The notes under the pieces were generated by a model that worked only from the letters and a program-made list of their open reading frames with translations, made no database searches and had not been told where the DNA came from. DNA of 64,000 nucleotides, from NCBI GenBank assembly GCA_973895155.1, contig OZ316894.1, positions 9,585,440-9,649,439 on the forward strand, in the 5' to 3' direction. Within the stretch, counting starts at the first letter, position 1, and every line of letters begins with the position of its first letter. This DNA comes from Marsupella aquatica (taxonomy: Eukaryota; Plantae; Marchantiophyta). Of this stretch, positions 5,768 through 64,000 are shown one piece after another. A program made the translations under genes and the position numbers.

Positions 5768-7099
5768 GAAGTCCATCCAAAGATCACTACCATAGAGAAG
5801 ATCATGTCATTTAAAGCATAAATAATTACTGAAATTTAAGTGCCTCATTTTAGGCTGCGTTTAAAAGCTTACAAAAAGGTAATAATGGATATCTAAAAAT
5901 GTATTCAGCTTTTTTATGCAAACAATTAGAGGGTCTGTCAATTTGCATACTTTCCTAAGTGACAATTCTTTAAAATTAAAATTTGGATAAATTATTTGGG
6001 ACATTGGCAAACACTATAGCTTGAGATATAAAAAGATTCAGGTTTCGCCTCGGCATGCGCGAACCTGATAATCCCAAGGGTAGTATATATATCAAACTGT
6101 CAAAAAAAGGAGCTGAACCTGGAGACAGTATCTCATTGGACTAAAACCCAATCAAGGGAGAACAAAAAAGAGGCCCAAAAGGAGTCACTTTGACTCGTTC
6201 ATGAAAGTATTTTAAAACTCTCATAGCAAATTGTGATAAGGTATTATATATGTATTGACTGACAGTTAAGTGAAAAGGGAAAAGTACATTGTCGCTTTAT
6301 GATACCCAAACGGCAGTGCATTTGTCCACATCTGTACCCGGACATTCCCACGATTGTACTGTACTAGAGTACTACCAGGTTACTAACTTAGCATACGTCA
6401 CTCCATGTCAACATTTTTGGGAACTTTTAATGCTTGATGATGAGCATGTTTTAAAATATTCTAGAATCAAAGAATATAGTAAGAGGGACGCTGTCGACAT
6501 TATTGTCACATGGTTAATTAAGGCCTTTTCATTGGCAAACACTGTGCTATTAAAAAAGGCCAAAGACGTCCAGTGAAGAAAAAAGCAAAAGAGATCCAAA
6601 TTTTGATGACGGATCATTAAAAAGTACAATGCAAAGGAAAATAATGCTCCCATGGACCCCATGGTTGGTCTTTCGAAACTCTCATGGAACACATTTACTA
6701 AAATTTGTGTTTAATTGTAAGAATTTTGATATTCATAAATTTAAATATTTTTTAGTTTTGGGGATGCTCTTTTTGTCTTTTGGCAGTTTGAAACATAATT
6801 ACTCTTTTTGTCTTTTGGCAGTTTCAAACATAATAATAGAACACAAACTCTAAACACGAGGCAAATGCAACCCCCTAAAACTAGAAAGTAAAAAGGAAAA
6901 AATTGAGCTACCACTCCAATAGTGTGGTGAGTCAATGGTGTACATCTAGTGTAATAACTAAATTGAGCTTGAGAGCGTTGTAATATCCCTAACATTGGCT
7001 GATAAAAGTGCATTATCAAAACAAATAGTGATGGTCCAATAAAACCTGATAATGTCCTGAGTTACTCTATAGCAAAGAAGAGTAAGCTTGTGCAGCATG

Positions 7100-7750
7100 T
7101 TTTGCCTCCTTTATCATTGTTGCCCATGCCATTGTTACCCTTGCCCCTCTAGTTGCTATGCTGATGATATCCTGGCACAAAGGGTTGACCACCACAACAT
7201 CAGCCAAGGTATGTTAGTCATCATGGACCATAAAAGGATTGTCAGGTTCTTGTCCTGGTAATTGTTATGGTGGAGTATTAGGCAAATGGAGCACCTGTCA
7301 CCTCCTGTTGCAACTTGTACCAAATTCCCGGAGAGAACTAAAGCAGTAGCATCTCTCATTAATAATTATGGTCTCACCCCCTGTATGGCACCAAAGAAGA
7401 TGGACCCTTGTGGCATCACAAGGCTTCCGACATGTGCAAGAAGTAAGTAAGCTTACAAGAAGTGGATCATGATGTAAGGTCCCCATACAAAGATGTATGG
7501 GTGTTGAGAACTCATCTAAAGACCTCCTTAGATGAGGAATGGCAGAATTGGCCTGGAGCCACCATTTCCACACTTCCCTCCTGAAGAAAGAATTTGAGCT
7601 TGGACACTAAGATGAGAACAAAGAACTAGGACCTAAAAGAGAGGCAAAAGTCTCTTAAATGGAGAGATCAAAAGGTGAAAATGATCAAAAGAAAGGTGCG
7701 AAGTGTCCACCCACTTACAGGTCATATTTGATTGGGGACTATAAACATTT
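7100..7750 (-). pseudogene. Decayed fragment of the CRE-like non-LTR retrotransposon family (zinc-knuckle/REL region)
   Basis: ORF 7298-7573 (WLQANSAIPHLR...SCTCRKPCDATRVHLLWCHTGGETI) matches the element at 21040-21240 (WLQANPVIPHLR...SCTCGKPCDATGVHLLWYTLGGETI). Boundaries are approximate. Confidence 0.75.
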
Positions 7751-19687: not shown

Positions 19688-22000
19688 TTGCTATTGGGGA
19701 GGTTTTTCTTCGTCTTGTGTCTCGTACACTTTCATCGCAATATCGCTCTGCACTTTCGGATCATCTCTCTCCACATCAGTTTGCAGTGGACGTTCCTGGC
19801 TGTTGTGAGACAATTATTGGGGGTATTCGCGCGTGCTACCTTGGACCTCCACCCTGATTGGGTTTTCCTCCAGGTTGATGTCTCTAACGCTTTCAATACG
19901 GTTTCTCGGGCAGCCATTTTTCGTGCTTTGAGGGCGGCGGATCCAGACATCCAGTCCCTTATCCCCTTTGTCCGTTATTTTTATGGACTTGAGGCCCCGC
20001 TCTTCTATAGTCATCACACCTCTACTGGATTGTATACCACTCTTTCTTCTCCTGAAGGTACACTTCAAGGTGACCCTTTGGGTGGGCCTCTTTTTGCCAT
20101 TGCCTATTTTACAGCTTTACGGGAAGCTACCCCGGCCCACCCCCAGTGTATCTTCCCCTCCCTTTCATATGACACTCACATCATTGATCCCCCTGCCGCA
20201 GTTGCTTCTGCCCTTGCCACTCTTTCTACCCATTTGATGGGTCTCGGTTTACGGGTTCAGCCTATGAAGAGTCGTGCTTGGAGTCCAGTTGGGTTACCCT
20301 CTGATCTTGCGCTAGCTTCCCTGGGTTCTTAAGTCCAGCCGACGGTCTTCGGGTCCTTGGCTCCCCAATCGGTACCGCCTCCTTTTGCTCATCTCTCATC
20401 GTTGACGCTCTACAGGCGGCCTTAGCCCCTACTCCTATGCTCCCTAAGTTAGCAGATTCTTAGGCTGCATTTGGGATGTTGTTGAGGTGCGTCCACCCTC
20501 GTGCGTCTTATTTGACTAGGATGCATCCCCCTATCGAGGATCTTTGTCTCCACCTTCGAGCATTTGATGTCTCCATTCGAGAGACTATGGCCTCTCTTTT
20601 AGGGCCGGGTACATTGCTCTCATCTCAGTGGCTTCATCGACAGCTCAGTCTTCCTATTTCTCAGGGCGTGTTTGGGTTTACTCCCATTGAGCGCCTTGCA
20701 CCTTTGGCCTATTTGGGCGCGTGGGCGGCCGCCTTCTCATTGTTGGCAGATGGTTTCCTTATTGAGGACCGACCTTTTTTATTTTCATCTCTCACGGAGG
20801 TAGAGGAGGGTTCCCTCCCATTTCAGGTTCATTTGCGCGCAGCAAGGTCATCATTACCAGATCCCGTCCGAGCTGCGTTACCTTCATTTCAAGAGTTTTT
20901 ATCCTTGGACCCCGTCCATCTTCAGGCAGACCTTGTTGGGCATATGCACGCTTTCACCCTCTTCAGCATCCTCACTGAGGCACCTGACATGGACCAAGCT
21001 TGGATTCTTTCTTCCGAAGGAAAGGGCGCAGGAGGATGGCTTCAGGCCAATCCAGTTATTCCTCATCTTCGGATGTCTTCAGCAGAGTTCTCGACAGCCA
21101 TGCGTCTTCGTATGGGGCTGCCCCCACCCACTTCTTGTTGGTTTTACCTCCTTCTTGCACTTGTGGGAAGCCTTGTGATGCCACAGGTGTCCATCTTCTT
21201 TGGTACACTTTGGGCGGCGAAACCATTTTTGTTCACGATGATATGAGAGATGCGATTGCTCAGGTTCTCTCTAGCTCTTTGGTCAGCGTGCGGCGGGAGG
21301 TGGTGCTCGAGTTACCTGGTCCTCCATCACAGCGGTTGCAGGTGGATCTTACTATGGTCTGTGAGGGTCAATGTACTTTGGCTGATGTAGTAGTGGAAAA
21401 CCCATTGCGCCAAGACATCATTGGGACAGCGGCAACAACAGCAACGGCAGCGGCATCACGAGCGGCAACAACGAAGGAGGCCAAATATGTTGCCCGAGCT
21501 TCATGTGATAGCTTCCTCCCCCTTTCTCTTAAGATATTTAGGCATCTCCACCATCAATTCAACGGGCTTCTTCAAAAAGTTGCTCGGGATGTTCATGGTC
21601 GGATGGGTCCCACCGGACCCCCACTATTTGTTTTGACCACGCACTTTTGCCAACGCATTTGAGTCACCTTATAGCATGCTCAAGCTCGGGCCATCCATCG
21701 TTGATCTCTGACAATGGGTGCTAGTGTGCCTCCGCAGAGGCTAGCCCCCCTAGAGGACATTCCAGTCCCACTTGCTGATTTAGTTTCGACACTTGATGTG
21801 GACCATTAGCTATTAACCACATTAGCTAGGAATGATAAGGACCTTGGTCCATTTGCGGTCATTTTAGTTCCCCTTTCTTGGTTCTTAGAGGTTTCCTTTT
21901 GCTCACTTCTTTTGCATTTGGTTTTGCCCACTTGGGACCTCTTTTGTTTCTTCTTTTGTACTCTGTTTGGCCCTTTTCTGTAAAAAGTTTGTGTATATTT
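19688..22000 (+). mobile_element. 5'-truncated, inactivated non-LTR retrotransposon (RT plus CCHC plus restriction-like endonuclease; CRE-like)
   Basis: RT motifs AIGEVFLRLVSR, HQFAV..PG..E, DVSNAFNTVSR, GTLQGDPLGGPLF. C-terminal CTCGKPCDATGVHL and DLTM...DVVV...KEAKY...FLPL. Several in-frame stops and frameshifts. Possible TSD ACTTCAGT at 19680-19687 and 22001-22008. Confidence 0.85.
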
Positions 22001-41544: not shown

Positions 41545-41920
41545 TTTGGAAGATGCATCAATGAATCGTGTTCGGGAGATTTATGTCCAACTTTTGTGGC
41601 AGCAGTCATGATGGACATTTGACCACTCATCCCTCGGTTCCCAACAGATACTTCAATCTGGTGGGTTTGCAAGATGAAATGCATCAATGAATTGTGTTCA
41701 GGAGATTAATGTCCAACTTTTATGGCAGCAGTCATGATGGACAGTTGACCTCCCAATCCCTCATTTCCAATCAGATACTTCAAATTGGTGTGTTTGCAAG
41801 TTAAGATGCATCAATGAATCGTGTTCGGAAGATTAATGTCCAACTTTTATGGCAGCAGCCGTTGATCTCCCAATCCCTCGTTTCCAATCAGATACTTCAA
41901 TTTGGTTGGTTTGCAAGTTC
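41545..41920. repeat. Three-copy ~130-bp tandem repeat downstream of the lactonase
   Basis: ATGCATCAATGAAT.GTGTTC...ATGTCCAACTTTT.TGGCAGCAG...CAGATACTTCAA...TTTGCAAG x3. Confidence 0.85.
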
Positions 41921-42719
41921 TGGGGCTCACAGAGGGAGGGACACAGGGTGCATTCTTCTGGATTTATTGGCACAGGAGGGACTGTCAAAAAGAGGCAGCA
42001 CCTCCTACTGTGGCTCAACTGATAAGACACATCAAAATTTGAGCCTTGACTAGTTGCCAAGAAAGGAAATCATGTGCCAAATCACCGCTTGTAAGGTGAA
42101 TAATGTCTACCAACAAGCGGCATCCATGCAATTTTCGGTATCGGATTGTTGCCATGTAAGGCTATCATTTGCCAAATCAACACTTGAAAGGCCAATCAAA
42201 TGGCGTCCATGCAAACTCCTGTATCTATGTGTTGCCTGTCAAGGAACTCGATCAGACACCAAGTGGCCCCTCGTCTGGTGCATGATGTCTATTATCAGGT
42301 TGGCGTCAGTCCTCTGTATCCACAGTGCCCACGTACAGATTGAGTTTCATCGAAGGGATGATTGGAATTTTCAGCTATACCGCATACTGGAATGATGAAC
42401 TCTTCTGTCTAAAGTGAACGTCCAGACATCCCTCTTTACATAAACAATGTACAGTGAGATCTGGGTGCGAGGAGCAGAAAATTTGAAACCGCTGATCTCG
42501 TCCATACAGGATACCAAATGGTAGAATGCTCGGATTCCACCGGATGTATGATGACCACAGGCTGGCGTACAGTATCCACGGATCCCACGGCAGTAAGAGC
42601 CGTGGACTACCCTGAATGCCCGGTTTAATCTGACGGGCACCTTGACGCCTTGTCGGGCACGTCAAATCGTCAAATGACGGCCCGAAAACACGCAATTTGA
42701 CGTATATTCCTGAAGATTC

Positions 42720-43320
42720 TCCCGAACGAACCCCGACTTCCCCGGACCTTTCGCGAACACCTCCCGAGCACCCCGGACCTGAACCCGAACTCCCCCTGAC
42801 CCGAACCCGGACTCCCGGGCCCTTCCCGGACCCTCCCCGGACCCTCCCGGGCCTTTCCCGAAACCTCGCCGGACCCTCCCCCGAACACTCCCCGGACTCT
42901 CGGGCCTTTCCCGGACCCTCCCCGGACCCCCACCCGAACCCTCCCCGGACCCCCACCCGAACCCTGCCCGGACCCTTCCGGGGCCGGCCGGGGTAAAGGT
43001 GGCCCGGGGGACGGGATTCGGGGAACCGGGGACGGGGGGCATTCGGGGAAGAGGATTCGGGGAACCGGGGAAGGGGGGGCGGGAAAGGGGGGCCGGGATT
43101 CGGGGATTTGGGGAACGGGGTTCGGGGAACGGGGTTTGGGGAACGAGGTAGGGGGTTCGGGGAACGGGGTTTGGGGAACGAGGTAGGGGGTTCGGGGAAG
43201 GGGGTTCGGGTAGGGGGTTCGGGGATGCGGGGAACGGGGTTCGGGGAACGGGGTGCGGGGTTCGGGGAACGGGGTGCGGGGTTCGGGGACGGGGCTCGGG
43301 AATTGGTGGCCGGGGAAGAG
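42720..43320. repeat. Left subterminal GC-rich repeat field
   Basis: C-rich CCCG(A/G)ACC units (42720-42975) switch to G-rich GGGGTTCGGGGAAC units (42980-43320). Confidence 0.85.
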
Positions 43321-43529
43321 TTAGAGGCGGGATTAGGGTTAGGGGCGCGAGATTAGGGTTAAGGGAGGCGCAATTAGGGTTAGGATCAAAGATTAAGAGT
43401 TTTAAGAGAGGATAAGAAGTAGATGATTTAGTATAAGTAGGAATAACTAATTCATTTCACTAATCCAAAGTCTCATTGTGTTTCTCTCTCTTGTGGTTTA
43501 GCATTAGGGAGAGATCGGAGGGATACATT

Positions 43530-43885
43530 GGAACTCTTGTACGCGCATGCTTTGAGCTCGGCTCGGTCTGCGATAATTCGTACGAGAAGTTCCTTATATC
43601 GCCTTAACAACTTTGCATCATTGTTTTGTTTGAAAGTGAACTACTTGCGAGTAAAGAGATACCCATGTGCATATGCTTAGAGCTTTGGCTCGGTCTATGA
43701 CATTTCATATGGGTATCACGATTTCTCATACATATGTTCACTTCAAAGATAAACTATTGTGAAGTTATAGATATTACATAACATAGGTTGAAGTAGGGAT
43801 GTTGACAAATATAAGAATTTGGGAAACTTTCCTGCGCATGCTTTGAGCTTAGGCCCAGTCTGCGATAATTCAGGAAAGTAACCCA
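43530..43885 (+). promoter_or_regulatory. Three tandem conserved stem-loops upstream of the transposase ATG
   Basis: Core CGCATGCTTTGAGC-loop-GCTCGGTCTGCGATA inside different closing stems at 43530-43593, 43658-43717 and 43820-43885, with compensatory substitutions. Confidence 0.75.
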
Positions 43886-43960
43886 TTGTACTATATTTGT
43901 TATATTCACAAAATCAAAAGAATCAACCCTTTTATTTTTTTACCATTGAGAGTCGTAACA

Positions 43961-46863
43961 ATGTCCGATGAAGAGGATTCGCATGAAACTGGATATCATT
44001 CCACTACTCCCAGGCCTGGTCCAACTCGTGTGCAAGAACACCCTTCAAAACAATCTCCAGTGTGGAGATATTTTGAACGATGTGATGCGCCTTCAACATG
44101 TCATGATGTCAATCGTATCTATCGAAGATGCAAGTATTGTTTAACATACGTTACTCATCATGCAACACGAGCAAAGGCGCATTTGATGGGAAACATCCAA
44201 AAAGGGGATGCGCCCCCTTGCATGCAACTCTATGGTGTCGTCGATTTGGATGCCATCAACATTATGTACAATGTGATAAAGGTTCCACCGACCTTAAACT
44301 ACAAACGACGAGATGGAAGTCATATCTTGCGGGATGTGAGAGGTCGTAGGCCAAGCGTTGGAAGTTCATATTCGCAAGCATCCACACGAGGGTCAAACTA
44401 TGTTGACATGGATGATACACATGTAAGGGAAGGAGATAGGCCAGTAAATCTTCCTAACCCAATTATGGATGCCTATCAAATTCCAAATAGAACAAATTTG
44501 GATAAGCTTTGGGCGAAAGCTTTCTACACCAATGGTATTCCATTCAATGTTTCAAATAATCCTTTTTTTCGAGAAGCAGTCATAGAGACTTCAAAAGGGA
44601 TTGTCAATGGTTATTCTCTACCTACGATGCGAAGTTTGCGATTGAAATTATTGGAAGACAGTAAGGAGGATCTCACAAAGGACATGACGCAAACTTTAAA
44701 GGAGGCAAAACCTTATGGGTATTCTCTTTCTTCAGATGGATGGGAAAACGTCCGAAGAGAACCTTTGATGAATGTCATGTTGTTGACTTCTAAAGGTGAC
44801 TTCTTCTTGGATAGTTGGAATGCTGCGCAAGCTGACAAGAAAGATGGGAAATATCTTGGCGACATGTGGTTGAAATACATTGAGGATATTGGTGCAGATC
44901 ATATTATTCAAATTGTAACTGATGGAGCACCCGCAAATCGCGTAGCAGGTTGTGAGGTAGTCATGAAAAAGTATCCTCATGTCACTTGGAGCTGGTGTGC
45001 TGCCCACGTGTTTAATTTGCTGCTAGAGGATATGTGTGGTCACAAGCGTGTAGTGGTAGATGATGTTGGACAGAATCCATTCCAAAAGATTTTTAAACGG
45101 TTGAGGTGGATAGTAAAAGCAGTTTCATCATCGCAAAAGCTTTCTGCAATATTTGCAAGAAAATCTCCTGACAAAAAACTGTTGAATCCAAATGCAACTA
45201 GATTTGCGACCAATTTCCTAATGGCACAAAGAGCGTTGGAGCTAAGAGGAGCTTTACAACAGATGGTCATTGATGATAATTGGCAGTCTTATCGTGATAG
45301 ACTTCCATTGCGACCAAAATCAGCTGGACACATGACGAGGGGAAAGGCAGACGAACTTAAAATGTGGATACAGCAAGATACATTTTGGGTTGAAGTGAAG
45401 GATACAGTTAAATTCTTTACTCTGTTGGTCAAGATGTTGCGAGAATTTGATGGTGATTCTCCGCAATCAGGTTGGTTGTATTGGAGTTTGAAAAGAGGGA
45501 TTGATGTTTTGAAAGCAAGCATGGAGGATTGTCCATTGGTAACAGAGGTATTGAAACCGAAGATACTAAAAGTGTATTTGGATCGAAAAAAATCTCTTAC
45601 CACTGATTTCATGCTAGCGGCAGCATATCTCAATCCCCAAATGTTTTTTGATGAGGACATAGATGTCGCTGGAGATCCAGAACTCTACAGGGTTTCAGTG
45701 AATACATTGCTAGATATTCAGAACAACAGGTGAAGGAGGGGATCAACCATGATCGCGACGTCAGAGAACTTATTTCTGCCATCCACAGTCAAGCCATTGA
45801 CGCCCAAAAAAAAAATCCCAACACATCAATAGCGATGGGAGCCGCCCAATCAAGTATAGGTAATGTCAGTCCAGCAGAGTGGTGGCATGCGTATGGTGCA
45901 GATTATAAACATTTGAGAATCCTGGCGCGAAGAATCTTACACCAAAAAGTGTGCGCATCAGCTTGCGAGCGAAACTGGAGTTCGTATGGATTTATACATT
46001 CCAAAAGTCGCAATCGATTGACAAATGATCGAGCAAAAGATTTGGTGTTTGTATTTACAAACATGAGGGTAGAGAAAGGGCTCACAAATGTTCGAAACCC
46101 GCATACGTTTATATATGAACGTTATGACCAAAGAAGAAGAACAAATGATGGACCTAGACCTATCTCCATGGAGTTGTGCAGCAATGAAGAGTACGATGCA
46201 ACACGTGCGGCTCTTGGTGAAGAAGATGTCGAAGATTATGATACAATTGATGATGCTGATGAATTGCTACACGGATTTTCACTGGATAAGGATAGTGAGT
46301 TCTTGACTCGTATTCCACCAGATACAGACATCACTGCTGCAGAGGAATGGGAGAATGAAATGGATTTGGAGATGTATCCTACAATTGATGAATCGCAAAT
46401 CCAAGACGAGGAAGATGCATCACTGGACAGAAACTTTGTGATGCCTTCCCAACCAAGGTCACCTTGGTCGAACTTTGCGAATGATGTTGACACAAGCAGA
46501 CCATATTTCAACGAGCAACGCACAGGCACAGCAGGGCATCCGACGAATGGAAGGACATCAACCTTTTTTCATGGATACAATCATGAAGGTCAAACTTCAA
46601 ACGACCCACATGCAAACTGGCAACACCATGCAGGTCCACCCTTGAATGCGTATGCAGGGCCAAGTGTCATGAATCCATATACGTCGAACAGGCCTATTGG
46701 CCTTGGTGGGTTTCGAGGAATATCATCATTTCAAGAAACATCGCACAATGTTCAGTCACACAATCGTGATCCACTCAGTTGGGGCGACAAACAAGACGAG
46801 TGGAATGCGCTTTTGTGCAAAAATCTTAACAACAATGCACGAAATTTCTCTTCACAGCCTTGA
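43961..46863 (+). CDS. hAT transposase (BED zinc finger, DUF659-type RNase H core, hAT dimerisation domain), one frameshift
   Basis: BED finger (SPVWRYF..CKYC..KAHL), catalytic D (SDGW), D (VTDGA), CAAH, TRFAT, then WW..YG and CERNWS (E). An apparent 1-bp deletion near 45683-45690 splits it into ORFs 43886-45733 and 45730-46863. Confidence 0.92.
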
Positions 46864-47104
46864 AGCATCTTTTCATTAGGATAATATCAAGTGTTGCTAC
46901 TCTTATATTGTCGTATCTGACATAGACAAAATTATAAACAATTATATTTTTTGTAACATGATTGTATTGTCTTGCAGTGTGTTTATTATTGTACAATGAT
47001 TGAATAATTTATTTGTATTTGCATTTGAGAATGCCATAGAGACACACCAACGCAACATGTTTTCCAAATCTCCAACACTGACTATTTCAAAGTACCTTGT
47101 TGTT

Positions 47105-48430
47105 GGCCATAGCAGCCGTAGTCCATACTAGCCCCCTCCATTAATTGGTTAGTTCATTTCACTATGCGAAGATTTAGTCCAGCAATAGAGCACCGTCATA
47201 TTCAATAATAATGAGGTCGAGAGGACCTCATTATTGGACCTGAGAATGTCATTGCTTGAATAAACCTTCTCGTAATAAAATAAACTTAGTTGAACTTGAA
47301 GTTGTAATGAGGGCCCATTTTTGGGGTGGGTGAATGTCGTTGACCGTAGCAGCTGCACTACTTGAAGTTGGGCAGAGTTTATATGACTATGAGAGAAGTT
47401 GTGAAATGAACACATCGCCTACATAATCAGTAACCTTCTCATAATCATATAAACCCCGTTCAACTTGAAGTTGTAATGAGGGCCCATTGGTGGCCAAGGA
47501 GAGCAATGTCATGATGATGATCAGACACGGTCACGGGGATTCCGCAAGATCGGTCACCAAATTGATATGCAGACGCAAAATACAATCACCAATTTCAAGT
47601 CAAAGTTCACCCGTTTATATCCTCTCCTGTCCGAATTCCAATTCGAGCTTGGACACCCTCTCGTCAGCAGGTCTCCACCCTTTCAGTTGCTCCTCACGCG
47701 AACCTCTGGATTCCTCAAACACTATGAATGATGCATTGAAATAAAATAGGTTCGAGGATTCTAGAGACTGCTATCTTGGTTTGCGTGAAGAGCAACTGCA
47801 ATGGTGGAGACCAGCTGACGAGAGGATGTCCAAGCTCGAATTGGAATTCAGAAAGGAGAGGATATAAACATGCAATTGTGCGAATTAATGTCATAGGCCG
47901 TAGTAGCCGTACTCCAGTAATTGGTCAGTTCATTTCATTATCAGAAGATTTATTCAAGCAACGGAGCACGAACATATTCAATAATAACAAAGTCAGGAGG
48001 ACCTGAAATATTGACCTGAGAGTGCCATTGCTTGAATAAACCTTCTCATAATGAAAAAAACTCTGTTCAACTTCAAGTTCTAATCAGGGCCCATTTTTGG
48101 GGTAGGCAAATGTAGAGGCGTTGGCCTCGGTTTGCATGCGCATGAATGTCATTGGTCGTAGCAGCTACGCTACTTGAAGTTGAACAGAGTTTATTTGAGT
48201 ACGAGAGAAGTTGTGAAACCAACGGATCGATGACATACTCAGTAATTTTTTGCTCGAAGGACCTGAAAATTTGACCTGAGAGTGCATTTGCTTTCAGAAC
48301 TTCTCTCGTACTCAAATAAACTCCGTTCAACTTCAAGTTGTAATGAGGGCCCATTTTTGCGGTGGGCAAAGGAGTAGGCGTTGGCCTCGGTTCGCATGTG
48401 CATGAATGTCATTGGCCGTAGCAGCAATAG
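47105..48430. ncRNA. Cluster of five pre-miRNA-like foldbacks (putative small-RNA precursor array)
   Basis: Arm pairs 47151-47186/47251-47286, 47360-47400/47432-47471, 47613-47704/47778-47869, 47927-47961/48028-48062 and 48172-48222/48288-48338. Four units share a scaffold ending ...AACTT(G/C)AAGTT.TAAT.AGGGCCCATT. Expression is not demonstrated. Confidence 0.65.
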
Positions 48431-48930
48431 CGGAAAAAATTATGAAAGACAGGAAAAGTGAGTGGACTTAGGTATACATCCTTCTACAAAATCATTCTCA
48501 ACTTGGGCGGCTAAAACCATTGCGATGTTGACTTTGTTGAACTCATTGTGCTACACGATCTCCTTTTGGAAATGATTTCAGAGAAGGATCAGTACCTGAG
48601 TCCACTGTGCTACCGTCTCTCATCACGTCTATTTTCCTCATACTTGTCCAAAAATATGATTGTGAGCCCGACAATATGCTTCCAAAACCTATGGCTGATT
48701 GGAGGATGGAATATTCTTACGAAAATACACATTCTCCAAAAGGCGACGCCATGCCCCCAATGAAAAATATATGTACTCATCGAGATATGCAATGTAATGT
48801 CACTCCAAAATCTCTTTACCAATTACAAGTTGAAAATAATTGTCAAAGAGGATATGCCGCTTCTATTTTAACAAAATGTCTCTAATAGTAACTACATGAA
48901 AATAACATCAAAATGTAGAGACTATTGGTT

Positions 48931-50928
48931 TTAGTTCCTTTTGTTGTTATTGTCAACAGCTTCTGTTTTCACCTCTGCCTGTTGTTGACGTCGTCGATGG
49001 CGCTGAATGGATCGTTGCAAATTTTGCTCATCTATTGATGGCTGGTTGGCTGCCGCATATTGTTTCCACTCATCGAGTCGACCACTGAATAACAACCTGT
49101 CAAATTCCCCATCTGACAAATTATATTCATTGATTGTGAAATGTTCAATGGGAGTTTCATCTATTTGCATCGCCGGTATAGTATCTTCAGTCATATCTTC
49201 AGTGTTTTGTTGAGTCTCCATTGATGGCATTTGCTTCAACAATCCTCGTTGCTCATACTCGCGTTCATGAAATGGTGTGCGACACCAACATTTTCGGCTT
49301 TTCTTCAACCATTTAGACAAGCAAGCATGATGCCATATATGACCGCAGGTTCCCAACATGGAAACAGATTCAGGGCCCCAAGGATATAGGCACCAAGTAC
49401 ACTTGTCATCCTTTTCACGAACAAATGCTGCCATAGTTTCATCATTTTTCCACTTATCAAAAAACCTATCAATACCTTCCGCGTCAACCTCCACATCTGG
49501 AAAAAGGTTGCTGTGCCCTGTAGGATCTATGATTTGCATGTTAACAAAATTTGGCGGCGATAATTCACCTTGCCCTTTGTTTGACCTCATCCCCAAAGCA
49601 CCATTGTTAAATTCTTGCACCTCTTCGTGAAGATTTGATATGATGATTGCTTGCATTGCAAGTTCACTTTTAAGATCATTAATGATCTTGTCCTTCTCCT
49701 CAAGTCGTGCCAGTTCATTGCATTGACGCTCTTTTTCAGCAAGTTGTTTTGTCAGCTTATTGATTTCTTCCATCTTGTCAAACAATTGACACTTGTACAA
49801 CATCACTTCCGAATTGGTCGTCGGCTCGTTCTGCTTCTTCTCAAGTGATCTCATCTTTATATCAGCTTGTTGCAATTGTGACTTGAACTTTTCGATGCTG
49901 CCACATTCACATAGCTCCACTACATACTTCGTGCGGAGATTTGTCTCAATCACCTCTGCAACATCTGCCCCCAAGCTCTTGCATATGTTGTGCAGGTTGA
50001 ACTTATCCTTGTTAGCATCAGTAACATTGTTGTTCTTTGCATGTGGAGTTCTACTCCCAACACCTACAAGGATTGGTTTTTTGGTGTGCGTTGACTCCAC
50101 ATTGGTTGGTGGTGCTGCACGGTCAGGCATGGAGACTCGAGGAAGTACAGCCGCTTTCCCCTTCTCATGCGCATATCCCTCCCCAGTGTCATCTAGCTTT
50201 CTTTTGGATCCCTTGTTGGAAGTCTCCATTGAAGGGTCCTTTGCAATAGTTGTATTCCTATTCGTTGCAATCGCAACCACTGATGGATGCACCTGATGAG
50301 TCAGCTTGCCAGCACTGTTTTCCCAACGGTAATCCACCTTCCACTTGAGAATGAATTCAGCAATCAGACATCGGATAAAAGGAGGGTAAACGGAACTCAT
50401 TTTCGTTTGGGCTTTGTGTGGAGCAAACTCTCGATATCGTTGCTGCCAATGTGATTTAACACCTGCATGTGTTACTTTGGACATGGTGAATTTTTCTTGC
50501 GCCCATGATCTTGTTGCCCAAAGATCCGGATCGTGAAAAACTTGTTGTGCTAATGGCCAAAAGTCTTTCTTTGGCATCAACATCTCCAATTCCTTTGCAT
50601 TCATGGCCCATTCGTCATGGGGAGGATTTACATTGGGCGTTAATATACTCCATTCATCCTTCATACCCTCATCTTCCCATCTTCTTGTGTTTGGCGTCGG
50701 TGTTCCATCAACCTTGGGTTTAGCCTCATAGTGAATGCCAATGGTTGTAAGATTATCCAACACATTATTACGAAGAGCTTCATCGTCACAATAGGATCCT
50801 TGACCATCTTGCATGGTAAGATGTTGTGTTGTGAACTCTTTGTCTTCATCATCAGAAGACAATTCCCATCGTCCCATGTTTGCGATGTGTACAAAAGGTC
50901 TGCGATATTTGACAATGTACAAACACAT
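48931..50928 (-). CDS. Transposon cargo: coiled-coil plus RING-H2 protein (putative E3 ubiquitin ligase)
   Basis: Uninterrupted 665-aa ORF (second ATG at 50877), heptad-rich middle region, and CTWC-x14-CGHIWHHAC-x10-CWC ligand pattern. Confidence 0.82.
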   Translation of the reverse strand: MCLYIVKYRRPFVHIANMGRWELSSDDEDKEFTTQHLTMQDGQGSYCDDEALRNNVLDNLTTIGIHYEAKPKVDGTPTPNTRRWEDEGMKDEWSILTPNVNPPHDEWAMNAKELEMLMPKKDFWPLAQQVFHDPDLWATRSWAQEKFTMSKVTHAGVKSHWQQRYREFAPHKAQTKMSSVYPPFIRCLIAEFILKWKVDYRWENSAGKLTHQVHPSVVAIATNRNTTIAKDPSMETSNKGSKRKLDDTGEGYAHEKGKAAVLPRVSMPDRAAPPTNVESTHTKKPILVGVGSRTPHAKNNNVTDANKDKFNLHNICKSLGADVAEVIETNLRTKYVVELCECGSIEKFKSQLQQADIKMRSLEKKQNEPTTNSEVMLYKCQLFDKMEEINKLTKQLAEKERQCNELARLEEKDKIINDLKSELAMQAIIISNLHEEVQEFNNGALGMRSNKGQGELSPPNFVNMQIIDPTGHSNLFPDVEVDAEGIDRFFDKWKNDETMAAFVREKDDKCTWCLYPWGPESVSMLGTCGHIWHHACLSKWLKKSRKCWCRTPFHEREYEQRGLLKQMPSMETQQNTEDMTEDTIPAMQIDETPIEHFTINEYNLSDGEFDRLLFSGRLDEWKQYAAANQPSIDEQNLQRSIQRHRRRQQQAEVKTEAVDNNNKRN

Positions 50929-51064
50929 TTAGCACAATTTTGGGCATTCACGACAAAGTTTGATAGAATATTATCAACAAAATGCAGAACATTGTAATTG
51001 ACATACAATGAATAAACATATAATCGTTAAGGTGACCTTTACAAAATTGTGTAAACCCTAATCT

Positions 51065-52720
51065 CTAATCTCTAAGATATGGACTGTTGTGCAAATGCAA
51101 TGTGCAATCTGGAAACGTTCGAACTATCTTCAAACTCCAAAAAGCACAATCCATTCTTTTCTTGGCATCCGTGGCCATCATTTCACGGATTATGATATCC
51201 AATTTGGGGCCATGCACTTGTGCACTCCAACCCCTCCCCAAAAACCGTGAACCCTTAGACATTCCATCCCAATTCTCTGTCAACAATGTCTCAAAAATAT
51301 TCCCCAAAGCATATATATCGGTACTTTCACTAAACTCGACAGGGGTAGGTTGAACAAGCTCCGGAGCCAACTGTGGAAATTGTTTTTGGTATGTTGCTGC
51401 TTTTTCTGTTGCTGTGGGCCACATCCGATTAGCTGGTAATTTGCACTGTGATTTATGCTTAGACAAGCCAAAATCACATAAACCAACATACACCTTAATA
51501 GCCACATCGTGCTCGTGATCGAAATGAAGAAGGATGTTTCCAAAGTGAAGATCACAATGAAATCGATCATGCTCATGCAAGTATTGCAGTGTCTCCAGCA
51601 AAGCCAAGGCGATTCCCAACCGGTTCTCCAACAAGAGTTTCTTCTCCGAAATAAACTTGAAATCAAGGTCCGTCGTGATCTGTGCCTTCCCCTTGCTCTT
51701 TGACGATATGCCGCACTTATCAATAAAGCTACCCAAGTCACCTCCATTATAGTGATCGTAAATAAGTTTTGGCGGATCCTCAATAGTCAACGCAAGAGCT
51801 CCAACGATTCCCTTATGATTCAGTCCTCCCATAAGCACTTCTTGTAATGCGTCAGTTCGTCTCTTATGCTTGTCTCCATCCTTGAACCGCTTTGCGACTA
51901 AGGTCACGTTGACGGGAATGAGAGGACAATGTAATATACGACAAGTGTATACCTCTCCTTGGATTCCTTTCCCAATGCGACGTGTGTTGTGCACCTGCTC
52001 AGGTTTAAGAAAATGGATACTCCTAACCTCTGGAACTACACGCGATGGACGTGTTCCTTTTCGAGCACTTTTGATGCTGACATCCCCAAAGTGCACAATC
52101 TCGTTAGCATATTTGACATTGCTATCAGATTTTGCCATTGCCAACTCCTTACTCCACTTCACTAGCAATTCTCTCTTGTGTGTGTACATCCCGGGGTTTC
52201 CAAGCAATGTAGTGTCACCCTCTTCCACTTTGGCTGCCAAATTATCCCAAACATGCTTCTCCAAGTTGAGTGCCAAATTTTCCAGAAATCCTCCCGGTTT
52301 CTCAGTTTCATCTTCAAATGACTTCATTTGCTCTCGTGTGAAATTGTCTTCCTTTTGTACACTTTCCCGCATACAACGGGTTATCTCACCAAGAAAGTTT
52401 TTGTATCCTTTCTCTCCGTGTCTTGTGAACTCCCTCTCGAACCCGTCCACCCCATACTGTTTCGGTTGAGTGTAGCGATAAAGTATCTCTTTCCATATCG
52501 ACACTACCACATTGTGTCGAACTTGTTTTGCCTCTTCGTTTGCCCCCTTCCGTTTTCGTTTCCCGGCCACTTTGCTAGAATTCCTAGCATGTTCGAGAGT
52601 GTTTCGAGCGTTCTTCAATGCATCCAGAGCAACAAGATTCGGCTCATATCCCTCATTCACATGTTTTGTGATCATCTCCAACACTTGCCTATACTCTAAA
52701 CTAAAATTTTCGATGACCAT
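51065..52720 (-). CDS. Transposon cargo: protein kinase (TKL-like, non-RD) with N-terminal helical extension
   Basis: Uninterrupted 551-aa ORF with GKGIQG loop, VAK lysine, alphaC Glu, HCDLHFGNIL, DFG, APE and DIYALG. Basic KRKRK patch near the N-terminus. Confidence 0.9.
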   Translation of the reverse strand: MVIENFSLEYRQVLEMITKHVNEGYEPNLVALDALKNARNTLEHARNSSKVAGKRKRKGANEEAKQVRHNVVVSIWKEILYRYTQPKQYGVDGFEREFTRHGEKGYKNFLGEITRCMRESVQKEDNFTREQMKSFEDETEKPGGFLENLALNLEKHVWDNLAAKVEEGDTTLLGNPGMYTHKRELLVKWSKELAMAKSDSNVKYANEIVHFGDVSIKSARKGTRPSRVVPEVRSIHFLKPEQVHNTRRIGKGIQGEVYTCRILHCPLIPVNVTLVAKRFKDGDKHKRRTDALQEVLMGGLNHKGIVGALALTIEDPPKLIYDHYNGGDLGSFIDKCGISSKSKGKAQITTDLDFKFISEKKLLLENRLGIALALLETLQYLHEHDRFHCDLHFGNILLHFDHEHDVAIKVYVGLCDFGLSKHKSQCKLPANRMWPTATEKAATYQKQFPQLAPELVQPTPVEFSESTDIYALGNIFETLLTENWDGMSKGSRFLGRGWSAQVHGPKLDIIIREMMATDAKKRMDCAFWSLKIVRTFPDCTLHLHNSPYLRD

Positions 52721-52933
52721 GTTTTCCCTTCACAAAAGGAATATGTGAGGGAGGAACAAGATCTTACCGGGATTTAAATAAAATCCTTCCAATAAGGATT
52801 CAACGACCAACCTGAAAATTACAAGTCGTATTGTTATTATCTTTTCCCGGTTTATTTCTCCCATGCATTATGTATTTTTATTGCACACATGATTTTAATT
52901 ACCTTTCTATATACAACAATAAAAGAGAAAGAC

Positions 52934-53283
52934 AACACTTGTGAAATATCGCAGACCGAGTGGACGCTCAAAGCATGCGCACAAAAGTGTTCTTTTCTTT
53001 CAAAGTTGTTATATTCCTGCTTCGACATATGTGATTTGGTGTCTATAACTTAACACTCATTTGTATTTCAAGTAAAAACATTCTCGGCGAATCGTGGTAT
53101 CCATGCAAAGTATCGCAGACCGAGCCGAAACTCTAAGCATGCGTACATGGATTCCTCTATCTCCGCAAATGTTTTACTTAATGAACAAAGGAGACTAAAT
53201 TGTTAAGGTGATATTAAGAAATTCTTGTACGGAGTATCGCAAACCGAACCGAGGCTCAAAGCGTGCGCGTACAAGTGTTTCTT
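52934..53283 (-). promoter_or_regulatory. Three tandem conserved stem-loops upstream of the kinase ATG
   Basis: Reverse-complement copies of the same core at 52934-52991, 53096-53155 and 53216-53283, each with its own closing stem. Confidence 0.75.
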
Positions 53284-53411
53284 TATATCCCTCCATTTGG
53301 CTCTAAGGTTAAGGTTTAAAACACAAAAAAAACTTAAAAAATCACAAAACAAAACACAAACAAATAAAAACAAACCAAAAATCAAAAATAAAAACCAAAA
53401 CCAAACACTTA

Positions 53412-54115
53412 CCTCCTCCTCCTCCTCTTCTCTTCCTCCTCCTCCTCCTCTCCTCCTCCTCCTCCTCTCCTCTCCTCTCCTCCTCCTCTTCCTCCTCTCC
53501 TCCTCTCCTCCTTTCTGCAAAACCAAAAATGAGGAGGGAGAGGAGGGATCTCCTCCTTTTATCCTCTCCCGAGCCCCCGACCCTTTCCCGGCCGGCCCCA
53601 TCCTCCAACCCTAAATCGCGAAACCCTAATTCTTCGAGCCTCAATCCCGAACCCCGAACTTCCAAACCCCGAACCGGACCCCGAACCCCGAACCGGACCC
53701 CGAACCCCGATCCCCACCCGGACCCACCCCGGCCTCCCGGACCCGAACCCCACCCGGACCCCACCCCGAACCCCCACCGAGCGCCTCCGCCCCGGGCCCG
53801 GACCCCACCCGAACCCCCCGTACCTCCCGAACCCGAACCCCTCGGACCCGGACCCGAACCCCACCCGGAACCCCACCCGAACCCCCCGCACCTCCTCCTC
53901 CCGGACCCGAGCCGCACCCGGACCCCACCCCGAACCCCCACCGAGCGGACCCGAACCCCACCCGGACCCCACCCCGAGCCCCCACCGAGCGCCTCCGCCC
54001 CGGACCCGGACCCGATTAGTCACCCGGACCCCCACCCGAACCTCCTCCCGAACCTCCTCCCGAACCCGAACCCCGAACCGGACGTTTCCTTTCCCGGACT
54101 GCTTCCGAACCCGGG
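53412..54115. repeat. Right subterminal repeats: (CCT)n tract and C-rich CCCG(A/G)ACCCC units
   Basis: CCT/CT microsatellite at 53412-53510, then dense CCCGAACCCC / CCCGGACCCC repeats at 53570-54115. Confidence 0.85.
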
Positions 54116-54826
54116 TGCCGGGTTGTCAATTTGCCGCTCTCAAACGCCCAGTTTGACGGGCAAGGTCAAACCGGGCCTGAATGCGTGATCTGCACCTCAT
54201 AAAGGAGAAGGATCATATAAAACATCCATTGTTTGTAAATAGAAGCCTCTCAAGAAATAACAGGCTTGTGTGGGCGAAAAGGAGAGCAAGTTATAGCAGA
54301 GAGACAAGGGATAGATGTATGCTGTGGAAATCCTATTGATTCCAATGAGCATCGGAGAAATTGTTCTCTGTATGCACGGAGTAGAAGTTTTGAGCCACAG
54401 CACTGAGGAACACCAAACTGTGAGGCACATGCTGTCGAATCTGAATAAACGCATTTAACAAAGTGCAGAATATACTGTAGCTTTGTAACGGCAAAGGAAG
54501 GGTTCAGAAGGAAAGTCATACAAATGTGAGTACTAAAGCCTTAAATTTTGGCAAAAGGAGAGCAATGGAGAGCTTTCAATGACGTGTCAAACAGTGTGCG
54601 ATCTACGCTTTCTGCAAATATATTCAATTGTTAAAAACTCCACTCATGCACTTTAGTGTTGGAAGCTTGGTTACACTATCAGGTGAAATACCTCACATGC
54701 ATCAGTCAGCTAGTGAGTCTACAGTAGTTTTAATGATTGTAGTACCGTAGAATAGTTGGAGACCATATCATGGAATTTCTTCTAATTTATGGATACAAGT
54801 TTGCTGCGAAAGTGGAGCACAAGATT

Positions 54827-54995
54827 TTGGCAGAGTGAGATGGCGTACGAAGGAACTTTGTTGAGTCGTGCTGGGCAAACTCTTGGCAGAGTGAGATGGC
54901 GTACAAAGGAACTTTGTTGAGTCGTGCTTGGCAAACTCTTGGCAGATTGAGATGGCTTACATAGGAACTTTGTTGAGTCGTCCTGGGCAAACTCC
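54827..54995. repeat. Three-copy ~56-bp tandem repeat
   Basis: TTGGCAGA.TGAGATGGC.TAC..AGGAACTTTGTTGAGTCGT.CT.GGCAAACTC x3. Confidence 0.85.
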
Positions 54996-56233
54996 CAGTG
55001 CAGACCACGTCAAGTAGACTACTAGTGGTTTGTTTTATTGAATTAGGTCCTAGTGTCTGGCTCTGGACATTTACATTAGTTTCATTCGTCATTAATGGTT
55101 TCTGTTGTTTTGCGCTAGCTCTATTTCACAGCAACAATTTTGACAAAGCTGGTCCGATTCATATAACCGTGCAAGCATCTGTCCAGAAATCTTCCTTAGA
55201 AGAGCCCGTGGATTAGGGCTTTCTGTGCAATGCTCCAATTCTTTCGTGTTCGGTACTTCACATCCAGCAAGCCATGTAAGCCCCTGTCCCCTGTCCCCTG
55301 TCGTTCCACCTGGCGAGAAATCCTACCTGCTGGCCTCTGTAGAGTTTTTGCACTTAATTTCCTCTCATTGTAGCAGTCCACTTAAGAGCGGTGAAGAACA
55401 TTATGGGTGTGAATGAAGATGCTCTAGCCATAACAGAGGCTAAGCTACCCTACACTTCACTGACTGAGATATGGTGAAGGTTCGGTTCCCTTTAAGTGGT
55501 TCACTTCCATATTTTTACTTTCAAAGTTTAGACGCTGCATATGTCATGATTGCACTATACAGTACTGGACGAGAGGACGAGAGGACCAGTGAATGTTTGT
55601 AGTTTCTGTCCGCAAATTTTTCAAATGGAGGTGTATTCAAGGTCTTGTCTCGGGCCGAATAGGGTGCTGTCAAGACATAAAGATCTGTGTGATCATACTT
55701 TAGGTTGCCATCAAGACTCACACTTTAGGTTGCCATCAAGACACACGACAGTATTTGACGTTTGTGACTCAGGAGAAGACAAGTGGTATAGGTCCCAATT
55801 ACGTACTTCCCTGAGGAAAGACAACAGAACAAATACTGCAGCATGTCCCACCAACTCTAAAGCACAACTCCAACAAAAGGCTTTGTCGACAGTTCCAATC
55901 GCGCGTGCAGCCTTATTAAAAAAATTCGTTTAGGGTACGTTTCAGATTTATCGTTTAGGCACTTGTGTTTAGGCATTGAAAGGGGACATATTGAATCATT
56001 CGCACAATGGAAAACATGAACCCAATACGAGCCACAGGGGAAAAAGTAGGGAAAATGAAAATGAAGGAGTGGTACTTCAGGAAGGGTACTTGCCAATTGC
56101 GGAATACTACTTCTAATCCAAAACAAACATGGAAAACCAAATGGAAAACTGTCGATAGTGCAGAACCGAAATCGTATAAACCAAAACCTTATAGACAGGT
56201 ATCATTTACATTGAGAGTGTTTCTCAAACATGA

Positions 56234-57937: not shown

Positions 57938-58286
57938 GCAAATTCGCTTTAGTCGAAGAAGTGGATGCTATTTTGACGAAGGCAGCAAACTTAAAAACAT
58001 GTCCTGTATACACTTTTCCCAGTTACCCGTTTTCCTGCATCCTATATACATCAAGACAAATTCGCTTTAGTCGAAGAAGTGGTGATTTTGAAGAAGGCAG
58101 CAAACTTGAAACATGTCCTGTATACACTTTCTCAGTGACCCGTTTTCCTGCATCCTATATACATCAAGACAAATTCGCTTTAGTCGAAGAAGTGGTGCAA
58201 TTTTGAAGAAGGCAGCAAACTTGAAACATGTCCTGTGTACACTATTCCCAGTGACCCTTTTTCCTGCATCCTATATTCATCAAGAC
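57938..58286. repeat. Three-copy ~120-bp tandem repeat upstream of RCCR
   Basis: CAAATTCGCTTTAGTCGAAGAAGTGG...GAAGGCAGCAAACTT.AAACATGTCCTGT...CCTGCATCCTATAT.CATCAAGAC x3. Confidence 0.88.
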
Positions 58287-59995
58287 TAGGCTTAATTAAG
58301 CCTACTTTGGGGTCTACAACTCTGTTAACTATGCACCATGACAAACTTCGGAAGTATCACATCGATGGAAGGGATCGTCTACTCTACGAGATCTGCATGC
58401 GAACCTCAAAATTCACGAGTGTTCAGAACGATATCAGCGCACGTAGCTGACTCATGGAACAAAAAGGTTTACATTCAGTACGTAATTTCCCACAGTATCG
58501 AAACGGTGGTCAACCAATCCAGGTTGCAAAACCAGAAATGCTCACGAAGGAATCGCAATATTTCGTGGTTGGTTCTTGATCACTTCTCACAGACATCCAC
58601 TTCCAACCGCCAGCTCCGCGGAGAAAAGATCAGTTGGAAAAGAGTGGTATGTAGTAACCGGTTGAGAGATTTGTTCATTTTTCGGTGACTTTCAGCAAAA
58701 TTTTGCAAGTCAGGTTTAAAAGTACCAGACACGGTATGCTACATTCCTTCTCAGCTGAAGCACCAGCATAGCTATGGTAGGGCGGAGTGTGTACTGTGGC
58801 CCTTCAGTACATTATCAGACTGGACGAACTGAAAACTTGATTAGAGTCGAGACATTGAAATGAGAGCAAGCCGAGGATTCGGACTCTGCTGTGATTCTGG
58901 GCGAAAATTAAGTTCCTCAATCTAGATAACGGTCCCAATCACTGTGACACCAGACACCCTGTTCATTCGTTTTCGCCAGCCTCCATTGTTCTACTTGTGT
59001 CTCTTTCATGCGGTTCCTACATCTCCTCCAAAAATGCCAAGTCTATTACTTCAGAACAATACATTGTAGGACCTCACGTTCCATCCAAATTGCTATCAGG
59101 GCAGGATGCAAGCCTTTTAACCAGAATATGCGTTCCTGTTTCAATTGACTGCCTCAGACAAGTACCAGCGATTCCAAAACAAATGACGCCTCACAACTTT
59201 GCCCCTTCATTCATGGCCTATAGAAAATAATCTGCATCCATTTTGTGGAGATCTCAATCAGTTCCTCCCACTCCAAGCACCCGTGGTAGCAAATTGCTGA
59301 CATTTGCCCAGACCTATCTCCCATACTGACAGATCAAAATACTTTAATGAGAGCTTCTTTTCTCCATTTGACTGAAAAATGTTAGAAAGAATTCAGTCAA
59401 ATAGCACCCCACGCACAGCAAGTTTCCCCTGGCGGAAGTACATGAAGTGTGCCATTTCGATCTCCTCTCATCCTCCGAGTGCACAGGATCTATGCCATAA
59501 AATTGAGCTCCATCTACAGACTCTGCTCTATGCCATAAATGTGTTCCAATGCAATTAGAAACACATTTCACCACGTCACAGTACCCTTGGACAGAGAAGT
59601 GGCCACCACATCTGTTAGTTGTGAACCTCTTAGCATATTTATCCGTCAGATTCTCACCAGTCGGCGACTTCAGGAGCAAGCCACTGTAAATGTTTAAATT
59701 CCAAGGATGAATTTATTCTCATAATTCCACAGTAATGACCATGAACAATTTGCTTCTTCATTCCATTCCTAAGATTAAAAGGGGTAGATACAAGGAGCTC
59801 ACTTTCCGATTCCAGATAGAATCAGCTGCCCAATTTAAACACAAAAGTATCTCCTCCAGCAGGAATTTTGCTGACAGCCTACACAGGGATGCGATGTCTT
59901 TCAAGTTCAAAAGAGGTAGCAGCAGGGATGTCCATCGCAAATGAAGACGGTAGCAAAAGCGGAACTTTTGCACTTTTGACAATCTAATTCCATAA

Positions 59996-62785: not shown

Positions 62786-63639
62786 CTCTGTTACCTCAAC
62801 GATCCGCCTTTTTGCTTCACAAACTCCCGAGCGAAGTTAGGACTCCCCCTAACAAAATTGTTGTCCGTCCGTCCGCAGGCAGAAATCGCATGGGACAAGG
62901 GGAAAAACCGGGCAAGGAGAAAAACCCTAATGTTTTCAGTTGCCTATTAAACCATAATAACGCGAGTCCAGATTGCCCCAGAGACGGTCAGTCAAGTGAC
63001 CTGCAGGAGCCATCATTGCCGAAATTTTAGCACGCAAAATTGAAGATCACTGGATGCTCAAAAAGCACGTGCACAGACAGTGTTCATAAAGCCAATATTT
63101 CCGTGCTGAGCCTTGGAAAAATGCCTGACCCAAACGTAGTGGCGAGCGAAAACGAGACAGCGCGTTAGTAGAGCTCAGATTTCTTTGCCCGGGAGCTTGA
63201 GACAATGCTTCGACCTAATTGCAAACGACTTAAATGAACGAGACAAGACTGTTCATAGTTTAGAGCAAAAGATTGCTGCACAGAGCTTGGACAAATTGCT
63301 TCAACCTAACCCACTGTGGTTGCGAACGAATTCACGAATCGAGCATGCTTCGACCTAATTGCGACCGGCTTGAGTGAGCGAGACAGAGCATATATTTCTT
63401 CAAACCAAAAATTGCTGCGCAAAGCTCTGAAGAAGCGCTTCAATCTCACCTCCTGTGATTGCGAACGAATTGGCGAATTGGCGAATTGGCGAATCGAACG
63501 AGCGCTCTGCTCGCAAAGAAGGAGCGCGAGAACGAGAGAGAGCACGACGAGAAACGCAACACTACTGCACCAAAACAACAATAGCAACGAGAGAAAACGC
63601 TACTGCACTATCAAATGCGTTCGCTCCACTTCTTCGCCT

Positions 63640-63915
63640 CCTCCTCGCAGGACCTCTCTCGGACGGTTTACGTGTATACGTGCTCAGTTCGCCCCCTCCT
63701 TCCCAGATAGTACACTAGTTACAAACGAAACGTCTCCTCCTCGCACGACCTCTCTGGGACGCTTTACGTGAATACGTGCTCAGTTCGTCCCCTCCTGCCC
63801 AGATAGTACATTAGTCACAAAAGAATCGTGTCCTTGTCGAAGGACCTCTCTCGGACGGTTTACGTGTATACGTGCTCAGTTCGTCCCCTCCTGCCCAGAT
63901 AGTACACTAGTTACA
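63640..63915. repeat. Three-copy ~95-bp tandem repeat upstream of RPT2
   Basis: GACCTCTCT.GGACG.TTTACGTG.ATACGTGCTCAGTTCG.CCCCTCCT.CCCAGATAGTACA.TAGT.ACAA x3. Confidence 0.88.
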
Positions 63916-64000
63916 ATAGAAGGCACGAAAGTTGTGTCATGCCTTTCATTATTTTTCTTTGGAATTTTCTCAGATGGTTTTAAACTAGGGTCATATTCCA

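Follow-up and report, generated by a model that had tools for sequence, protein, structure and literature searches.

A sixfold structured RNA motif with internal partner sites in a three-gene hAT transposon of Marsupella aquatica: a proposed switch

The 64,000-nucleotide stretch of Marsupella aquatica DNA analysed here (the window) contains two mirrored blocks of three hairpins, one ahead of a transposase gene and the other ahead of a protein kinase gene that faces it. This arrangement raises the question of why the same structured leader stands before two genes of one locus, and what its hairpins do. The initial annotation regarded the blocks as a duplicated and diverged 5′ untranslated region by which the transposase and its cargo are co-regulated, and took this as a sign of their long co-evolution. 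In this study, the structure, conservation and possible pairing partners of the hairpins were investigated, together with the element that carries them. The sequence evidence indicates a new RNA motif in a three-gene hAT element, with internal partner sites that are statistically strong; a mechanism by which these parts may act is proposed.

A hAT element with three genes

The element is delimited by an exact 8-bp target site duplication (42611-42618 = 54176-54183), of which no further copy occurs in the 64-kb window, and by exact 8-bp terminal inverted repeats at 42619 and 54175. Its subterminal repeats are GC-rich and mirrored between the two ends at 72% over 145 nt. The ends and the transposase domains identify it as a hAT element; the features of MuDR/Mutator elements (a 9-bp duplication, long similar terminal inverted repeats and a MULE transposase) were not found in it. 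The transposase lies on the forward strand and faces the kinase and RING genes on the reverse strand. The features are as follows:

42611..42618 (+), left 8-bp target site duplication, identical to 54176-54183
42619..54175, hAT (DUF659) transposon of 11,557 bp, recognised by terminal inverted repeats, transposase domains and GC-rich subterminal repeats
43961..46863 (+), hAT transposase with DUF659 and C-terminal dimerisation domain (Pfam)
47130..48345, five long hairpins resembling plant microRNA precursors, four of them homologous units
48931..50877 (−), RING-finger gene, its start codon at 50877 agreeing with the first methionine of the homologues
51065..52720 (−), protein kinase gene with intact catalytic motifs and a helical N-terminal region of about 240 aa
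54176..54183 (+), right 8-bp target site duplication, identical to the left one

The transposase was matched by the Pfam families PF04937 (E 2e-30) and PF05699 (E 6e-11). Its reading frame is shifted near 45689-45690, where contigs in all four sequencing runs have one extra base in the variant rows listed; the frameshift near 45690 is therefore probably peculiar to the present copy or its assembly. In the variant rows listed, the window also departs from related contigs at 52912 and 43728. The kinase has eight homologues at 48-73% identity and 19 clusters at E ≤1e-30; its structure model is poor (pLDDT 52), with weak kinase-domain matches only. The N-terminal region of about 240 aa had no match in Pfam or the Atlas. 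This region (51968-52720, −) is kept within the family; it has a basic patch and may be the part that binds RNA. Queries with the kinase and the transposase against viral contigs returned no related locus. Homologues of the RING protein were found at about 50%; its N-terminal domain (50250-50660, −) is tryptophan-rich and conserved, with no Pfam match. The named homologues of the transposase (75%) and the RING protein (50%) are Calypogeia fissa proteins only, and are located on different contigs.

In typical hAT elements, the transposase is the sole encoded protein, and a three-gene hAT element is unusual. The present element resembles plant DUF659-type hAT elements in its 8-bp duplication, short terminal inverted repeats, subterminal repeats, and DUF659 and dimerisation domains, and is set apart from them by its length of 11.6 kb, by intact genes for a kinase and a RING protein, by structured leaders that mirror each other and by a hairpin cluster in its interior. 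In the literature listings consulted (mostly open papers), no hAT element carrying both a kinase and a RING gene was found described. In a test for Pack-type cargo, i.e., a host gene fragment carried by an element, both the kinase and RING open reading frames were whole and had family homologues. The cargo looks like an accessory gene family rather than a captured fragment. The region 42000-53350 was also compared with contigs of unspecified kind from four sequencing runs of two studies (the listings covered 15 of the 92 joints and 40 of the 2571 variant rows). Related contigs were numerous in these runs, and in run X1 339 of 671 were less than 90% alike; the element therefore appears to belong to a family with many copies and diverged branches, contigs giving no copy number.

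The five middle hairpins lie between the transposase and RING genes, and the reverse strand folds equally well or better in 5/5. In the hairpin at 47613-47869, the 92-nt arms are 91% complementary (about −180 kcal/mol). These hairpins are candidates for transposon-encoded small RNAs against host genes. Elsewhere in the window, an inverted repeat pair (7084-7672 and 20563-21501, 68% over 536 nt) possibly represents the ends of another element, and the present one is flanked by tandem repeats (unit length 56-127 nt) at 41553-41919, 54820-54994, 57939-58313 and 63635-63921.

The mirrored leaders and their hairpins

The hairpins of the left (L) and right (R) leaders and the predicted introns of the right leader are listed below.

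43517..43606 (+), hairpin L1 with basal stem, core 43544-43578, from fold and covariation
43656..43717 (+), hairpin L2, core 43670-43704, with two compensatory core changes and one private bulge base
43800..43908 (+), hairpin L3 with basal stem, core 43835-43870, from fold
52909..53015 (−), hairpin R3 with basal stem (52934-52991 in the initial annotation), weakest of the six
53080..53170 (−), hairpin R2 with basal stem (previously 53096-53155), from fold
53205..53293 (−), hairpin R1 with basal stem (previously 53216-53283), U-C mismatch swapped to C-U
53303..53412 (−), predicted first intron of the right leader, from sequence only
52812..52902 (−), predicted second intron of the right leader (donor 52902, acceptor 52812), likewise

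The three reverse-oriented copies had been placed correctly and in the same order as the left set. The UA bulge and the UUCG loop of copy 2 are present, the loop being closed by U-G, not C-G, and so are the acceptor-like AGs at 43501 and 53303 and the GTAAGT donor at 53412. The similarity quoted earlier as that of a spacer belongs mostly to the 3′ arm of the longer basal stem of hairpin 1. The left and right leaders are 72% identical over 359 nt (E 1e-44), with a local alignment score of 459 compared with 170 ± 9 (maximum 197) in 200 shuffles. Identity between the sides was 86/106 (81%) in the apical cores and 89/136 (65%) in the linkers (Fisher p=0.009), and 97/145 (67%) in the basal stems, which do not differ from the linkers (p=0.80). 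The expectation that stems would match better than spacers was thus borne out for the apical cores, which beat the linkers, and failed for the basal stems. The initial interpretation is supported in part: alignment and covariation favour a duplicated, diverged leader under selection for structure, while its place in a mature 5′ untranslated region and the co-regulation of the genes are predictions. A long association of cargo and element is plausible, the linkers having drifted to 65% and the kinase and RING homologues standing at 48-73% and about 50%.

Each leader contains eight upstream AUGs and has a fold energy of about −123 kcal/mol. A conserved upstream peptide was considered and rejected; the upstream open reading frames differ between the sides, except for Met-Leu-stop in three of the six hairpins and one frame in copy 2. 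The right leader block is bounded by the acceptor at 53303 and the donor at 52902 and could be skipped. Telo-box-like motifs were observed at 43334-43381 and 53607-53628, upstream of the predicted acceptors at both ends.

The same architecture was found in 6/6 hairpins. Above a basal stem whose sequence is free come a 6-nt bulge in the 3′ strand, 4 bp and a pyrimidine mismatch; the upper part consists of 3 bp, a 2-nt bulge in the 5′ strand and a short stem with its cap. All six copies retain the pyrimidine mismatch, one G-U pair and bulges of exactly 2 and 6 nt, and the basal stems drift. Counted with their basal stems, the hairpins measure about 90-110 nt and have z-scores of −3.1 to −5.6; for R3, the core has z −0.86 and the extended hairpin z −3.55, with an opening cost of 6.8 kcal/mol. 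In the covariation analysis, whose structure was derived from the same six paralogues of one element, 97.4% of 114 cells were paired, two-sided changes occurred in 10/19 pairs, and 0/500 shuffles were as good. In the basal stems, pairing is kept despite unrelated sequence, with two-sided changes in 8/8 pairs. The transcribed-sense strand folds better than the antisense strand in 6/6 hairpins.

A covariance model found exactly six copies in the window at 75-81 bits, the next best hit scoring 15; the six match by construction. A search of the region 42000-55000 against Rfam 15 gave 15 matches at E ≤5, all far below the gathering score and none centred on the hairpins. The six hairpins are one conserved structured RNA motif, present at both ends of the element and without an Rfam family. 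The motif was found undescribed in the literature listings consulted, again mostly of open papers. The U-bulge may resemble retroviral TAR-type pockets, and the arms may resemble helix 34 of 18S rRNA. Pattern scans of metagenome, viral and prokaryote sequences had returned 3, 7 and 36 loci; these were rejected as chance matches, 0/46 holding the hairpin (best 20.6 bits; all 46 were scored with the hairpin model and 10 were folded).

Sites complementary to the 3′ arms and predicted long-range folds

The 64-kb window was scanned for complements of the hairpin arms of at least 14 bp with at most one G-U pair. Two were obtained for the 3′ arms, both inside the element:

50897..50915 (−), complement of the R3 3′ arm, 14 exact plus 4 bp, containing the acceptor-like AG at 50900
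47887..47900 (+), complement of the L2 3′ arm, 14 bp with one G-U, fitting the three private bases of L2

Inside the element, 0.007 such sites are expected, and two were reached in 0/300 shuffles; the complement was found post hoc, and the six copies all come from one element. The 3′ arm is in part complementary to a generic plant acceptor, and the shuffle test is therefore somewhat optimistic. The 5′ arms had no complement of at least 14 bp in the same scan, and four of the six hairpins were without a 14-bp site.

In both cases, site and hairpin share a strand, and the site, which lies downstream of the first gene, spans the 6-nt bulge as well as the upper stem. After opening costs, the net energy is −11.9 kcal/mol for the R3 site and −8.3 kcal/mol for the L2 site, each being the best partner of its hairpin, and both sites set an AG against identical arm positions. 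The exact 14-bp match of R3 (50897-50910, −) lies 20-33 nt upstream of the RING start, and the AG at 50900 is the sole U-rich YAG found between the kinase stop and the RING start. An 11-nt core of the 3′ arm recurs a fourth time, reversed, at 50897-50907 (0.01 expected); within the window, this core is restricted to the element, where several non-coding parts contain it. Relatives of the L2 site at 47333, 48145 and 48405 all head repeat units of the middle region and pair less well. A weaker site at 50878-50894 (−), abutting the RING start, pairs best with the R1 arm variant (9 bp exact; net +4 kcal/mol).

In 4/4 runs, an island at 50899-50937 was kept by a divergent contig in which the flanking 169 and 127 nt were unaligned, among the joints listed. 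The conserved island ends two bases before the helix does, and a branch point plus acceptor could by themselves account for it. In a divergent contig that retains the R3 5′ arm, the 3′ arm was unaligned. Judged by sequence, the complementary sites suggest a circuit internal to the element.

R3 is the weakest hairpin, and none lies closer to the donor at 52902. For the 2.45-kb unspliced RNA 53302-50850, the fold prediction has R3 open and forming 18 bp with the RING site (p ~0.84), so that the kinase frame is looped out. The same pairing was predicted in four of seven other boundary choices (5/8 unspliced folds overall) and lost in three; it was also lost once the intron 52902-52812 was removed. 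The hairpin and long-range folds are therefore nearly equal in predicted energy, and the prediction is fragile. When intact hairpins and the RING leader were folded as two strands, by a method that cannot model closed-loop pairing, the gain was 0 to −3.4 kcal/mol. In the fold of the left 4.4-kb RNA, L2 stays a hairpin and the long pairing was not predicted.

A proposed splicing switch and competing readings

We tentatively favour the reading that the six hairpins act as a riboswitch-like splicing switch by which either kinase or RING output would be selected, and consider it somewhat short of an even chance. Promoters in each element end would transcribe inward. In the unspliced right-hand RNA, R3 would exist either as a hairpin or paired with the RING acceptor 2 kb away, with the AG masked. 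When R3 is open, the RING AG would be hidden, the near acceptor at 52812 would be used and the kinase would be made. A factor that recognises the fixed bulge geometry would keep R3 closed and leave the acceptor at 50900 free, and the leader would splice past the kinase to the RING gene. This factor would most likely be a protein, possibly encoded by the element. The remaining hairpin copies would serve as extra binding sites, the transposase and kinase leaders sensing the same factor, and the left-hand counterpart would consist of L2 and the sites heading the middle hairpin units. Such a switch would explain the frozen bulge geometry together with the arm complement, and it is favoured by a structure with covariation, two strand- and variant-matched complements and the predicted masking of the sole U-rich YAG. 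Against it stand the left-hand fold, in which L2 stays a hairpin, the loss of the right-hand pairing in some folds and the four hairpins that lack a 14-bp site. The RING gene may have its own promoter, which would also count against the switch: a telo-box-like motif at 51054-51060 directly follows the kinase stop (telo-box at 51060) and may mark a third promoter region, for RING.

That the hairpins are small-RNA precursors is an unlikely reading that we nevertheless rank next. Two clusters would be processed by Dicer-like cuts, releasing 3′-arm guides that silence the RING RNA and the middle units in trans; the cutting would also cleave the transposase and kinase leaders. The R3 21-mer meets the RING site with a penalty of 2-3, the best in the 128 kb scanned, yet the other five guides score at least 5.5 at either site and none better than 5 anywhere scanned. 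The would-be guide is most conserved over its first 14 nt and begins with U in 5/6 copies, the basal stems are long and in tandem, and a second precursor-like cluster lies inside the element. Against this, the duplex has 6-nt and 2-nt bulges in 6/6 hairpins, so that a 21-nt guide pairs with a 16-17-nt partner; plant microRNA criteria specify a 20-24-nt duplex with at most three asymmetric bulged bases, and the hairpins fall outside them. If 50900 is a true acceptor, the site would moreover be mostly spliced out. A leader position would fit such precursors, which in liverworts are often found in untranslated regions and introns; in Marchantia, 36 of 95 genic pre-miRNAs are in untranslated regions and 51 in introns (PMC9291395).

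The remaining readings dispense with pairing between arm and site. The hairpins may be operators only, as the initial annotation implied, that is, protein-binding sites that set translation or leader-exon inclusion for transposase and kinase jointly, with the matches incidental or splice-site sequence. The fixed arms, wobble pairs and bulge sizes would fit this, triple copies suit cooperative binding, and the right block has borders like those of a cassette exon and contains upstream AUGs. Two strand-matched and variant-matched 14-bp complements (0/300 shuffles) would then be left to chance, and we regard this reading as improbable. Still more so is a relic, in which two related left ends would have been combined into the element, and the hairpins or the 11-nt core would act as DNA or not at all; a DNA-level role within it, e.g., as a site for the transposase or an anti-silencing protein, is given the same low weight. 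The mirror does extend over the GC-rich subterminal repeats (the 72% over 145 nt), and the core motif is confined, within the window, to several non-coding parts of the element. A relic is opposed by basal stems that still pair with unrelated sequence (the 8/8 two-sided changes), by the better folding of the sense strand in all six hairpins and by the compensatory nature of the L2 core changes. An origin from two left ends is compatible with the other readings. Base pairing between a leader arm and an internal site, which the switch and the small-RNA reading share, is probable.

The proposed switch can be compared with known systems. Among plant RNAs that control splicing, the TPP riboswitch of THIC, the P5SM of TFIIIA and the 45ABC of RBP45 are conserved structures that mask or free a splice site upon binding of a ligand or protein (bioRxiv 10.1101/2025.11.25.690383). 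The present switch would work alike and belongs to none of them, having no Rfam match, six copies and a partner site 2-4 kb away inside a transposon. Rice miR820, which arises from CACTA transposon hairpins and has a co-evolving complementary target in a host methyltransferase gene, sets the precedent for transposon hairpins of this sort (PMC3459959). In the present case, the complementary sites belong to the transposon that carries the hairpins, and the duplex is not shaped like that of a microRNA. A bryophyte DCL1a transcript contains an autoregulatory microRNA, as cited in PMC11799827. In maize MuDR (mudrA/mudrB), the ends hold the promoters of the transposase and a helper gene (PMC10401008). 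The likeness would lie in the two-ended promoter layout, the inward promoters of the present element being inferred; MuDR, however, belongs to the Mutator elements, whose duplications are 9 bp, and its long terminal inverted repeats are similar, whereas the present mirror is a structured-RNA leader, 65-81% alike across its parts, that lies 0.9 kb inside the ends.

Few structured RNAs controlling splicing are known in plants (bioRxiv 10.1101/2025.11.25.690383). The motif described here appears to be new, and partner sites are predicted for it. To a superfamily thought to hold little beyond the transposase, the element adds precursor-like hairpins and genes for a kinase and a RING protein, and these three are candidates for counter-silencing in bryophytes. 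The full picture, a three-gene hAT family with an RNA logic circuit in which the sixfold motif senses a factor and pairs with acceptors over 2-4 kb, is a possibility that we hold with slightly more doubt than the switch itself. If true, the output would toggle between transposase or kinase on the one hand and a RING ligase or the small-RNA hairpin cluster on the other, and a riboswitch-like splicing switch would be encoded by a eukaryotic DNA transposon. The finding bears on the timing of transposase and helper genes in plant DNA transposons.
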